A stretch of DNA of 64,000 bases from Alphaproteobacteria bacterium UBA3650. Lineage in GTDB: Bacteria; Pseudomonadota; Alphaproteobacteria; CAAHEQ01; UBA3637. The notes beneath the pieces were generated by a model. That model searched no databases and was not told the origin of the DNA. It saw nothing but the letters and a program-made list of their open reading frames with translations. The stretch is taken from assembly GCA_002373815.1 (NCBI GenBank), contig DFKH01000083.1, positions 2,376 to 66,375 of the forward strand, written 5' to 3'. Below are positions 2,031 through 7,881 of the stretch, in pieces; position 1 is the stretch's first letter; every line of letters starts with the position of its first letter. The translations under genes and the position numbers were made by a program.

Positions 2031-2060
2031 TGTGTCTTTTATAAAATTATAGGCGTGAGG
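2031..2060 (-). promoter_or_regulatory. Repeat copy A: TGTGTCTTTTATAAAATTATAGGCGTGAGG (reads CCTCACGCCTATAATTTTATAAAAGACACA on the minus strand; contains TATAAT and TATAAA)
   Basis: 25-nt exact match to 7855-7879. Shares the TTATAAAAGACAC core with copies at 5065-5090 and 6764-6784. Lies 28-70 nt upstream of the minus-strand ORF start at 1990. Confidence 0.45.
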
Positions 2061-2073
2061 ATAGTCTAAATCT

Positions 2074-2709
2074 TTAACTTATTTTTGGCAATCTCTTATC
2101 CTTAAAGTGTTTTTCTACCAATTTTTTGATTTCTTCATCTGGCAAGGACTCTATAAAACTTTTATAAAACCAGTTGCCAGATGGATGACCAAATATACAC
2201 ACATTTACCTTTTCAGGCATGCCTTTCTCTAATTCTTGGTAAAAATAAGAAAATTTTTCAAAATCTTTTCCTAATAGCCACAATTTAATCGATGAATTTT
2301 TTCTTAAGAGATTTACTATAAATTCAGCCATAATTTCTTGAGATTCTTTCTCTTTATCTAACTTGACTGTCCTAGCAGTGGACACAAAACTTTTATTCCA
2401 AAAAATAATCTCATGTTTGCAGGCAAGCTTTGTTAAAAAATCTTTTATATGTTGTGTTCGTCCACAAAAATATTCCTGTTTCTTTAATTCAGTATTCCCA
2501 GGATTATCACCAACAATAATATATTTGATATTTGCAATATTATCAATTTGTTTGGATAAATTTTCTAAAAATGGATTTGCATCTTCTCTTTTCTCATCTT
2601 GTGGATTAGGATTAGGCACCACATTTTCTTCTTGGCTATTATTCATCCAATCCAAAATTTTGTCTTTCAAATCTTCTACTAATGGGTGTAATGTCATATT
2701 TTTCTCCAA
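2074..2709 (-). CDS. uracil-DNA glycosylase superfamily-like protein (divergent family-4-like motifs)
   Basis: GDNPGNTE...EYFCGRTQ resembles UDG motif A (GEAPG..E..G.PFvG). CIFGHPSGNWF resembles motif B (HPSP). Divergently arranged with an XRE regulator. Confidence 0.45.
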   Translation of the reverse strand: MEKNMTLHPLVEDLKDKILDWMNNSQEENVVPNPNPQDEKREDANPFLENLSKQIDNIANIKYIIVGDNPGNTELKKQEYFCGRTQHIKDFLTKLACKHEIIFWNKSFVSTARTVKLDKEKESQEIMAEFIVNLLRKNSSIKLWLLGKDFEKFSYFYQELEKGMPEKVNVCIFGHPSGNWFYKSFIESLPDEEIKKLVEKHFKDKRLPKIS

Positions 2710-2865
2710 TTAAGTAAATTTCAAGCGAATTAAACTGCATTTTTTGCCACAAGTCAAGAATTACATTGCTTATTTTATTACAAAATCAGAATTCTAAAGG
2801 ATGTTTTATACGAAACAAATGACATATATTTTTATGCAACAGTTAATATATTTCAGGAAAACAAG

Positions 2866-3237
2866 ATGAAATTACAAATTGGACAAACTATCAAAGCAAT
2901 GCGCAAACAGCGTAAAATGAGTCAAGAGCAATTGGCCGAAGCGACACAATGTAGTTGTAAAACAATCAGTAATATTGAAAATGGTCACATTCCAGAGCTG
3001 AAACAAGTAGTCAATATTTGTGATGTTTTGAAAATTAGTATGGATGATCTGTTTAATTTACACTATAAACCATCTAATGATACAGAATCATCTGATGGAT
3101 ATTTTACAAATAGAGTACATTCGGATACAGCTTTAACTACAGAACAAATTCAAGATTTGGAAACTATCACTCAAAAATTGCCAACTTTAACAGCAGATCA
3201 ACTGAAAGCACTCCGCTTACTCATCAATTTATGGTGA
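2866..3237 (+). CDS. XRE-family helix-turn-helix transcriptional regulator
   Basis: N-terminal QEQLAEATQCSCKTISNIENG is a classic HTH_3 motif. 123 aa. Confidence 0.8.
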   Translation: MKLQIGQTIKAMRKQRKMSQEQLAEATQCSCKTISNIENGHIPELKQVVNICDVLKISMDDLFNLHYKPSNDTESSDGYFTNRVHSDTALTTEQIQDLETITQKLPTLTADQLKALRLLINLW

Positions 3238-3687
3238 GTTTATATTAAAAAATATAATATTAAAAAAACGATATATATCTATGGGGACATTGCCAAGGTG
3301 TCTTTCATTTTGGCAAATCTCTAATCTCAGATGTGGACTTTATAAGGCTGATTCAGTTTGAATCGGCAATTTGAGTTAGTATTCAGTTAAAAATTATCCC
3401 ATATTTTAATTTTATAAATGAGAAGTAAAAAACGAATCGGCATTAAAGGGAAAAAAGTGGATCAAAAATTGAAAATTTTACCCCCAGAATGGGCAAAATG
3501 GGGGTAAATAAAATTATAATAAAAATTATATATATCACAAAAACAGCATAAATTCTTTTATTATCATATAGTTATACAAAAACATCATTTTATTTTTATA
3601 TAAATTGACATTATATATTAATAAAGTACAACTATGCCATCAAAACACATGGTGTGTTTTGAATTAACTGTCAGGAAGGAGAAAAAA

Positions 3688-4191
3688 ATGACAGAAACTA
3701 ATATGGTTTTGAATGTTGTACCATCAAACAATTTCACCTCAAATGTATCCAATGGATTACCATCCGATGTTCAACAATTAATGGATATCTTAAATCGATC
3801 TTACTCTGGAGATTGGCGCAAATCAAAGGAAAAAACTCGAGTTTTAAACAGTATTTGGGTAAAATTGTTTAAAGGCGAACAAGAGAAACTATCCGTAACG
3901 GTTAATCAATACGCAAATATGCTTCCATTTTCAATTGAGGCAAATTTGAAAAATGTGGCTTTGTTTTTTGAACAATTACAAATGGGGGATCGCATTGCGC
4001 CTTATCTCTATGCGCGTATCTGTGAGGAACTGAATCTGAGTAGAGCAAGCAAATTGATGCCCAAAGAAAAGTTGTTCCAACTTTACCTAGATAAAGTTGT
4101 GATTAAAATTCTGAAAAAATTGTTAGAGTATTACATTTCAGAATTGAACTTCAAACAACGCATACACGGAAGCGAACTTGGGTACAATTAA
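3688..4191 (+). CDS. hypothetical protein
   Basis: ATG at 3688 is preceded by GGAAGGAG RBS. The ORF track start at 3634 is probably an extension. No domain recognised. Confidence 0.4.
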   Translation: MTETNMVLNVVPSNNFTSNVSNGLPSDVQQLMDILNRSYSGDWRKSKEKTRVLNSIWVKLFKGEQEKLSVTVNQYANMLPFSIEANLKNVALFFEQLQMGDRIAPYLYARICEELNLSRASKLMPKEKLFQLYLDKVVIKILKKLLEYYISELNFKQRIHGSELGYN

Positions 4192-6763: not shown

Positions 6764-6784
6764 CCTATTTCTTATAAAAGACAC
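6764..6784 (+). promoter_or_regulatory. Repeat copy D: CCTATTTCTTATAAAAGACAC (inverted relative to copies A/C/B, sense relative to the downstream + strand gene)
   Basis: 21-nt exact reverse-complement match to 5067-5087. Lies 52 nt upstream of the 6836 start. Confidence 0.4.
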
Positions 6785-6835
6785 TTTTGTTTTGGAAAAT
6801 GCTACAATGCGATTCGTAAAAGAAAGGAGCAAATT

Positions 6836-7687
6836 ATGGAATTATTAAAAGATATGTGTCAACGCATGCAAAATGAATTGAAAGGCGCAAAAGTAACAGA
6901 TTTAAAAAATCAGCAAGAAACAATCGCAACAGGTTATCCTAATTTGGATGAGGTTCTAGGTGGTGGCTTACCAGTTGGGAAATTGATTGTTCTTTCTCAC
7001 CACAGAAAAGAACGAATTTACCAATCATACTTTTTTAAGCAGATTATTTGTTTAATTTTAAATCGTTTTCACAAAGAAAACTCAGGCAACAAAAAGCAAA
7101 ACAACCTTGCCTATTTTAGTTATTTACACCCTGAATTTTTTGCACTTGAGTTACTTAAAATTAAAGGAAAGGATAATTGGTTCACTGGATTGACAGAGGC
7201 AACCAACCAATCACAGATAAACTATCCAATTTATCTGCATCAACTTGATAAGACAGAGAATCTACCTGACATTATGGAGCAAACTGTTCACAAATTAGGT
7301 TGTTCCATTGTTTGTTTAGATATGGCTGATATTTGGGTAACACACAATGGCAAAAGTATTCTGGACACTTTAATTCAACTACAAGAACTTGCAAGACAAC
7401 TCAATATTTGTATTTTTGTGTCATTATATAAAGAAGAACACGACTTAAACCACGAGCAAGATATCGCAGATATTGTGTTATCATTAGATGATTTTTGTGC
7501 TCTGCATAGCGACTTAGATGATTATCCAGTCTTTTCCGTGACAGTTTATAACAATATTCGACATAAATGGTATGATCAAAGGTTATGGGCTGAAAACTGC
7601 TATTTTCAAATAAATGACAAATATATTCTACCTTGCCCCCAGCAGTATTATGATAAATTGTTGGAAAAATATATTGATGATGAGTAA
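6836..7687 (+). CDS. DnaB-helicase C-terminal-domain-like (RecA-fold) protein lacking a Walker A motif
   Basis: TGYPNLDEVLGGGLPVGKLIVL resembles the DnaB/RadA TG.p.LD...gGl..g.l.ii segment, but GxxxxGK[ST] is absent. The later LIQLQELARQLNICIFVSLYKEEHDLNHEQDIADIVLSLD resembles the DnaB H4 region. Confidence 0.45.
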   Translation: MELLKDMCQRMQNELKGAKVTDLKNQQETIATGYPNLDEVLGGGLPVGKLIVLSHHRKERIYQSYFFKQIICLILNRFHKENSGNKKQNNLAYFSYLHPEFFALELLKIKGKDNWFTGLTEATNQSQINYPIYLHQLDKTENLPDIMEQTVHKLGCSIVCLDMADIWVTHNGKSILDTLIQLQELARQLNICIFVSLYKEEHDLNHEQDIADIVLSLDDFCALHSDLDDYPVFSVTVYNNIRHKWYDQRLWAENCYFQINDKYILPCPQQYYDKLLEKYIDDE

Positions 7688-7703
7688 GCGGAGCCAATAA
7701 AAA

Positions 7704-7779
7704 TGGTGCCGAGAATGTGACTCGAACACACGACCTACTGATTACGAATCAGTTGCTCTACCACCTGAGCTATCTCGGC
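7704..7779 (-). tRNA. tRNA-Thr (anticodon CGU)
   Basis: Reverse complement GCCGAGATAGCTCAGGTGGTAGAGCAACTGATTCGTAATCAGTAGGTCGTGTGTTCGAGTCACATTCTCGGCACCA folds as a cloverleaf. Anticodon loop is TTCGTAA, T-loop GTTCGAGTC, with encoded CCA. Confidence 0.85.
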
Positions 7780-7851
7780 AACAGAGCTATTATGCCATAA
7801 ATACAAAGAAAAATCAAGGTGTTTTTAAGTTACCGTTTTTTACTGGATTCA

Positions 7852-7881
7852 ACTGTCTTTTATAAAATTATAGGCGTGAAG
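7852..7881 (-). promoter_or_regulatory. Repeat copy B: CTGTCTTTTATAAAATTATAGGCGTGAAGG (putative tRNA-Thr promoter region; TATAAT on the minus strand)
   Basis: 25-nt exact match to 2034-2058. Lies 73-102 nt upstream of the tRNA 5' end. Confidence 0.45.

Follow-up and report, generated by a model that had tools for sequence, protein, structure and literature searches.

What does a short motif do that recurs before several genes of one mobile element, and does it also serve the tRNA gene which that element carries? The question is raised by a 64 kb stretch of the genome of Alphaproteobacteria bacterium UBA3650 (contig DFKH01000083.1; hereafter the window, meaning the whole stretch analysed), one end of which is occupied by an apparent integrative element of ~8.7 kb lodged in a tRNA-Thr gene. 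A first-pass annotation had described four copies of the motif in the element, each facing the next gene, and had proposed either a promoter or operator common to the island genes and tRNA-Thr or remnants of attachment (att) sites. We favour the reading that three of the repeats (copies A, B and C) are the upstream half of a paralogous promoter cassette that is reused before accessory genes and that the fourth (copy D) is truncated; we put the probability of this reading at roughly 0.68.

A pattern scan of the window confirmed the four copies. The 13-mer TTATAAAAGACAC occurs exactly at 2032–2044 (−), 5070–5082 (−) and 6772–6784 (+), corresponding to copies A (2032), B (5070) and C (6772), and with one mismatch, as TTATAAAAGACAG, at 7853–7865 (−), corresponding to copy D (7853). 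Allowing at most one mismatch, nothing beyond these four was found in the 64 kb, where 0.21 matches are expected by chance and a count of four was reached in none of 100 shuffles (0/100). All four copies are confined to 2032–7865, inside the element, and the heptamer AAGACAC is ~6-fold enriched there. Every copy is indeed oriented toward the next gene, with 41, 51, 51 and 73 nt between the core and the ATG (or the tRNA 5′ end) for A, B, C and D, respectively, and TATAAT is present in two copies (A and D), as had been reported. The repeats are real but slightly misjudged in length: the identical stretch is 26 nt (TGTCTTTTATAAAATTATAGGCGTGA) for A and D, in direct orientation (31 nt at 94%), and 22 nt for B and C, which are inverted relative to each other, where 25 and 21 nt had been given. 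On the gene-proximal side there is further similarity of A to C (78% over 46 nt) and to B (79% over 33 nt). A literature search for the motif sequence found no record, and Rfam matched tRNA as the sole family and nothing for the motif. DNA folding in 90 nt windows gave z-scores of −1.5 to +1.1 and no stable hairpin at A–D; a hairpin, REP/RAYT or attC-like structure was rejected, as no stable hairpin lies beside any copy.

Copies A, B and C share one architecture, in which the 13-mer is followed after exactly 15 nt by the extended −10-type sequence TGCTAnAnT and then by a leader, a ribosome-binding site (RBS) and an ATG. Cassette A (1991–2063, − strand) comprises an upstream arm of the CACGCCTATAATT type (2045–2063), the core (2032–2044), the 15 nt spacer, TGCTAGACT (2008–2016) and a leader with AAAGGAG; it would drive a 190-residue open reading frame (ORF) that starts at an ATG at 1990 and has weak GIY-YIG similarity. 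Cassette B (5019–5091, −) lies in the divergent intergenic region between the deiminase and integrase genes, before the PAD_porph deiminase gene (ATG at 5018), and consists of the arm TCCTATTTC (5083–5091), the core (5070–5082), the spacer, TGCTAAAAT (5046–5054) and an RBS. Cassette C (6763–6835, +) precedes the gene for a 283-residue RecA/DnaB-fold protein (ATG at 6836); its arm (6763–6771) is again TCCTATTTC and is followed by the core (6772–6784), the spacer, TGCTACAAT (6800–6808) and a leader with an RBS. In all three −10 sequences TG stands one base before a TAnnnT hexamer. The leader is about 25–30 nt long in A, B and C; in these and in all relatives the −10 box stands 18–28 nt from the ATG, with an AAAGGAG-type RBS in between, and the 13-mer would extend from about −43 to −31 relative to the predicted start. 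Within the 8.1 kb of the element at the start of the window there are three matches to ACAC-N15-TGnTAnnnT (simulated mean 0.07); the other 56 kb have none (simulated mean 0.43).

Related elements were traced through the integrase (71–93% identical) in other metagenomes and metagenome-assembled genomes (MAGs). They are L009 (integrase 93% and DNA 82% identical), L013 (DNA 89% identical), L008 and L016 (integrase 73% identical) and L017 and L018 (integrase 71% identical; from MAGs that carry the label uncultured Alphaproteobacteria). All three cassettes persist in L013, with 13/13 cores, equal spacing and the same −10 boxes, cassette A being conserved throughout, and cassette C is identical in L001–L004 and L013. 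For B, both L013 and L009 retain the core and −10 box against a diverging spacer and leader; in L009 the two boxes are exact and the spacer, arm and leader have diverged, and C is retained as far as the contig reaches. Counted over window versus L013 (A, B and C) and window versus L009 (B; the A and C rows were excluded as uncovered), the core and −10 box are identical at 88/88 positions, compared with 431/497 (87%) over the remaining positions of the intergenic regions concerned. Upstream of the deiminase gene, L017 and L018 have TTATAAAAAACAC-N15-TGCTATAAT and L008 and L016 have cTATAAATACAC-N15-TGCTATAAT; both are degenerate versions of B in the same register. A second cassette precedes different genes, encoding a 209-residue ankyrin-repeat protein in L016 and a 286-residue DnaB-like protein in L017. 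The family consensus is AAAnACAC-N15-TGCTAnAAT, and the columns that are invariant over 11 non-redundant instances are AAA.ACAC and TGCTA.A.T. No cassette was found in the chromosomal flanks of L017 and L018 or in the rest of the window; a scan of a viral collection gave two chance matches in unrelated contexts and a JGI metagenome scan gave the window's own sequence and unrelated families only. Homologue searches with the RecA/DnaB-fold and Rep-like proteins returned near-identical clusters alone, and the family is therefore rare.

Gene content also varies among these elements. A gene-cassette swap relates window 2057–2738 to L013 (reverse complement) 2745–5108, with the UDG-superfamily gene of the window exchanged for three different genes in L013, and the homology between the two stops exactly where the upstream arm of copy A ends. 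In L013 an inserted gene of 715 residues additionally separates the RecA/DnaB-fold gene from the tRNA.

According to the promoter reading, the element would have duplicated a cassette of ~40 bp (an A/T-rich arm, TTATAAAAGACAC, 15 nt and TGCTAnAnT, then a leader, an RBS and a start codon) to drive several accessory genes. TGn-TAnnnT is the classical extended −10 element, which does not require a −35 box for use by the host sigma-70 RNA polymerase, and polymerase would most likely make contact through it. The AAAnACAC block is placed where a −35 hexamer and proximal UP element, or the site of a class-II regulator, would lie; it might recruit or position polymerase or might dock one shared regulator, and either way expression would be coordinated among the 190-residue ORF, the deiminase and the RecA/DnaB-fold protein. 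We infer both that transcription starts at the cassettes and what may bind the 13-mer. Other promoters of the element and of the hosts have canonical TTGNNN-17 boxes (TTGCAA-17 for the AbiL genes and TTGATT-17 for the tRNA), and the cassette would therefore be a distinct promoter class and not the host default.

Several observations weigh against this reading. No TTGACA-like hexamer lies 16–18 bp from the −10 box of A, B or C: AAGACA sits at 19 bp, and the hexamer 17 bp upstream is [GAT]ACAC[AT]. A sigma-70 consensus scan of the window, which was uninformative overall (47 sites versus 43 expected) and did find the tRNA promoter, consequently left A, B and C unflagged. The G of GACA, normally the key base of a −35 box, varies among relatives. 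The 13/13 conservation of three paralogues and the perfect blocks of 22 and 26 nt exceed what polymerase contacts need, an excess for which recent gene conversion or a bound protein could account. Finally, at copy D and at a further site described below (site E) the core is present without the promoter geometry.

Copy D (7853–7884, −) consists of the upstream arm and the core only and lies between two inverted copies of the anticodon-loop core at which the element integrates. It has no −10 box at the cassette spacing and no extended −10 sequence; after its core a single piece, TTGAAT, is recognizable, which is also found seven bases later in the spacer of A. The tRNA-Thr gene has its own canonical sigma-70-type promoter, TTGATT-17-CATAAT (7789–7817, −), between D and the gene, and D lies 55 nt upstream of it. 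In a sister strain (L001/L002, ~98% identical across the element) the D core carries a C→T change and copy C is untouched. The cargo tRNA promoters of L016, L017 and L008 are likewise canonical (TTGCAT/TTGCAA-17-TATAAA/TATAAG), and no D-like sequence is present in the equivalent segment of L016–L018. Given the missing −10 box, the tRNA's own promoter, the strain mutation and the absence of a D-like motif in relatives, copy D is probably a truncated paralogue of the A-type cassette, with the spacer shortened and the −10 box lost, and is best read as neither promoter nor operator of the tRNA. The common promoter proposed in the first-pass annotation thus finds support at the island genes, where A, B and C have identical geometry, are conserved and are element-specific, and fails at tRNA-Thr.

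The frozen 13-mer has a second possible explanation, which refines the promoter reading and is compatible with it. The 13-mer, with its CCTAT-containing arm, might be the operator or activator site of an element-encoded protein, XRE or another conserved protein, so that a small regulon would result, made up of the cassette genes and perhaps also, through D, of the tRNA module. We hold this view tentatively and at less than an even chance. All 13 nt are the same in the three paralogues and in the window, L013 and L009, against a drifting spacer and leader; the site is centred near −41, as is typical for class-II activators; and no −35 box is present in the cassette, whereas other element promoters do have one. 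The 13-mer is frozen along its entire length, yet the base matching the G of TTGACA varies among relatives, the AAGACAC enrichment points the same way, core-like sites D and E exist outside the promoter geometry, and the XRE gene is conserved in every relative. This gene, encoding an XRE-family helix–turn–helix regulator (2866–3237, +), supplies a candidate binder that is not favoured. The motif has no convincing dyad, with only the central TTATAA palindromic and the flanks matching at 3–4 of 7–8 positions, and a repeat search of the window reported no inverted repeat within any single copy. The XRE gene's own upstream region (2710–2865) lacks the motif at up to one mismatch and has an unrelated palindrome instead (CAAGAAATATATTTCTTG in L013), and D is mutated in the sister strain and absent in relatives. 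As for another conserved protein, that of 185 residues gave no DNA-binding match and nothing in a PDB profile search, and is undetected in L017 and L018.

Site E (3298–3308, −; ATGAAAGACAC), ~60 nt downstream of the XRE gene, is a possible fifth, divergent relative of the core. It lacks the cassette geometry, yet L008, L016, L017 and L018 all retain it in this position, in surrounding DNA that is only 65–75% identical. A separate feature, the perfect palindrome CAAAACACATGGTGTGTTTTG at 3641–3661, stands in the leader of the conserved gene for the 167–185-residue protein and is kept in L008; it may serve as an operator or form an RNA hairpin. Another palindrome, of 11 bp (TTGTAATACAA, 5109–5119), lies in the deiminase–integrase intergenic region inside a 27 nt block that is identical in L009 (82% overall) and is a candidate operator of the integrase promoter.

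The boundaries of the element place its recombination site away from the repeats. As judged from its junctions, the element integrates in the anticodon loop of the host tRNA-Thr(CGU) gene, splits the gene and carries its own intact copy. The crossover is the 8 nt sequence ATTCGTAA. At the right junction (8047–8106, +) the element sequence GAGCAACGC is followed by the core ATTCGTAA (8056–8063) and an orphan 3′ half of the host tRNA-Thr; this segment is an inverted copy of the 3′ part of the tRNA (60 nt, 97%), and neither ARAGORN nor Rfam called a tRNA at 8025–8106. The left junction, read from the initial 30 nt of Logan contigs reaching beyond the left end of the window, consists of the tRNA-Thr 5′ half, ATTCGTAA and GGAATGGCAAATC and lies 624 nt left of the window start (L005 1–40). 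The intact cargo tRNA-Thr(CGU) (7704–7779, −), with its anticodon-loop core TTACGAAT at 7742–7749, has a counterpart in all relatives, which in L016–L018 is also tRNA-Thr(CGU). In L017 (4053–4265 and 11711–11750) the host halves (5′ GCCGATT…, 3′ …AATCGGCACCA) fit each other and differ from the cargo tRNA (GCCGAAG…CTTCGGCACCA); the host tRNA has therefore been split by integration. The predicted attP junction of the circular form is GAGCAACGC-ATTCGTAA-GGAATGGC. An attL-type pattern had no match in viral contigs, and a plasmid collection search gave tRNA matches only. The elements of L017 and L018 are 98.5% identical over 4.6 kb (L017 9255–13910 versus L018 9257–13909, reverse-complemented loci), whereas their chromosomal flanks at the same tRNA-Thr locus are only 71–78% identical, a difference that indicates, at the level of sequence comparison, recent horizontal transfer between different host species.

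Three further observations concern this region and its core. A promoter-like site at 7989–8017 (+), TTGACT-17-TAAACT, points into the orphan tRNA 3′ half; its hexamers are kept in the divergent L001, and it may transcribe a non-functional tRNA-like remnant. Between 7940 and 8445 the window differs from the L001–L004 strain at 15–19 positions per 100 nt, compared with 0–3 in the element and in the DNA beyond 8445; this patch takes in the spacer that leads up to the right junction and the beginning of the flanking gene, and the orphan tRNA 3′ half is conserved within it. The ATTCGTAA 8-mer also occurs at 6812–6819 in the leader downstream of copy C (GCGATTCGTAAAAG), possibly by coincidence, and the leader of copy A has GCGATTCGTTGAG at the equivalent place.

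With the junctions located, the suggestion that the repeats are scars of recombination or att-type sites, left by nested integrations or used by the integrase, becomes scarcely credible. The copies form a pairwise mosaic (A and D share one arm, B and C another, and A and C the gene-proximal arm), the A/D unit has sharp boundaries, the window/L013 homology breaks and the gene swap begins at the end of the arm of A, and B and C are inverted repeats around the integrase and rep genes. However, the true junctions are elsewhere, at ATTCGTAA in the tRNA-Thr anticodon loop, with host-type halves proven in L017; all four repeats are internal to the element and bear no resemblance to that core, and for these two reasons the att-remnant alternative of the first-pass annotation is rejected. 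No second integrase is present, and the relatives differ by other cassettes, never by the presence or absence of the whole A-to-D interval. The mosaic is explained equally well by duplication and gene conversion among paralogous promoters.

That the integrase binds the copies as arm-type sites, or that a small HUH-type Rep protein uses them as nick/origin sites, is a further possibility that we consider very improbable. The tyrosine integrase (5216–6271, +) does carry an arm-type region at its N terminus, the conserved P′ arm contains core-like sequences (AGGACACyTTTGGG and TGTCTTTCAA), and D is located in the P arm; a 152-residue protein with HUH-like motifs in its translation and a weak PF23343 match would provide the Rep. 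Against this, A, B and C lie 1–6 kb from the crossover core, well outside any arm, and the P′ look-alikes are not conserved in L017 and L018. Multiple dispersed origins in both orientations would be incompatible with rolling-circle replication, and the absence of hairpins at the copies also counts against nicking there.

Copy D lies in a segment that occurs in both orientations. The DNA between the two inverted cores (7750–8055) comprises the 5′ half of the tRNA with its promoter, together with copy D and a spacer that evolves fast. This segment is reversed in L008 relative to L016 (375 nt, 92.8% identical, collinear flanks) and in L018 relative to L017 (254 nt, 86% identical). In the flipped 5′ half of L018 the acceptor-stem bases differ, with GCCGATT and not GCCGAAG, and pair with the adjoining host-type 3′ half. 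In the flipped state (L018 and L008) a tRNA is rebuilt from the element 5′ half and the host 3′ half. The segment is possibly an integrase-driven invertible tRNA/att module; we know of no earlier description of such a module. An inversion of the block from the UDG-like gene to rep between A and C was considered and rejected, as inversion of the att/tRNA module relative to the backbone describes the difference from the L016–L018 lineage equally well. A more elaborate proposal, in which the 13-mer is bound by XRE or by the arm-binding domain of the integrase and D couples the state of the tRNA/att switch to cargo expression, strikes us as improbable. If true, one motif would place both the replacement tRNA module and the cargo (deiminase, RecA/DnaB-fold protein and putative nuclease) of a tRNA-splitting integrative element under common regulation.

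Two other parts of the element deserve description. The first two element genes (window 1–1392, with the gene start at L005 218) form an AbiL-type abortive-infection pair (PADLOC: AbiLi, E = 2e-63; AbiLii, E = 4.5e-5), and by these matches the element carries an anti-phage defence system. After the integrase, 6281–6739 encodes the 152-residue protein with its HUH-endonuclease-like motifs, recognized by eye (ITVVF, HYHLML and YLSKE); together with the neighbouring RecA/DnaB-fold protein it suggests rolling-circle replication of the excised element.

Set beside known systems, the motif is an ordinary feature, namely duplicated promoters in a mobile element, and the element itself is unusual; its context matters more than the motif. 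The cassettes resemble extended −10 (TGn) sigma-70 promoters in having TG one base before TAnnnT, no usable −35 box and A/T-rich DNA upstream. They differ from them in that the 13 nt block from −43 to −31 is conserved far beyond the needs of an UP element or −35 box and in that the most variable base is the equivalent of the G of TTGACA; their host, probably an alphaproteobacterium, is also uncultured. They likewise resemble the duplicated promoter cassettes of mobile elements, placed directly before an RBS and start codon and reused for several genes. As in the Cro/CI (XRE) regulons of phages and islands, one sequence block recurs at several promoters and the element has a conserved XRE gene; unlike in those regulons, the block is not a dyad, is absent at the XRE promoter and is found only at the −35 regions of accessory genes. 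The motif would show a small mobile element wiring acquired genes (ankyrin, deiminase, nuclease-like and helicase-like) into one programme by promoter copying, which offers a handle for predicting the expression of cargo genes in uncultured hosts.

The integration of the element invites comparison with two further systems. Classical islands in tRNA genes (Islander-type; PMC4383910) arise by integrase insertion into a tRNA gene, with a displaced fragment at one end. Our element shares the integrase-mediated insertion into a tRNA gene that leaves a displaced tRNA fragment, but its two ends hold different halves of the tRNA, the 5′ half and the 3′ half, and its tRNA 3′-half repeat is inverted, not direct, relative to the intact gene. 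In the tRNA-dependent lysogeny of actinobacteriophages, a tyrosine integrase uses a short common core in a host tRNA gene (Guerrero-Bustamante and Hatfull, 2024; PMC10865867). The present element is similar in its short tRNA core, in that no functional tRNA is rebuilt at the junction and in its cargo tRNA-Thr(CGU). It differs from those phages in being a non-phage element of ~8.7 kb in AT-rich, probably alphaproteobacterial genomes, with the anticodon loop of tRNA-Thr(CGU) as its core, and in carrying the cargo tRNA 5′ half and promoter on a segment found both ways round, one orientation of which rebuilds a functional tRNA. It would thus extend tRNA-dependent integration, so far described from actinobacteriophages, to non-phage islands in genomes of that kind.

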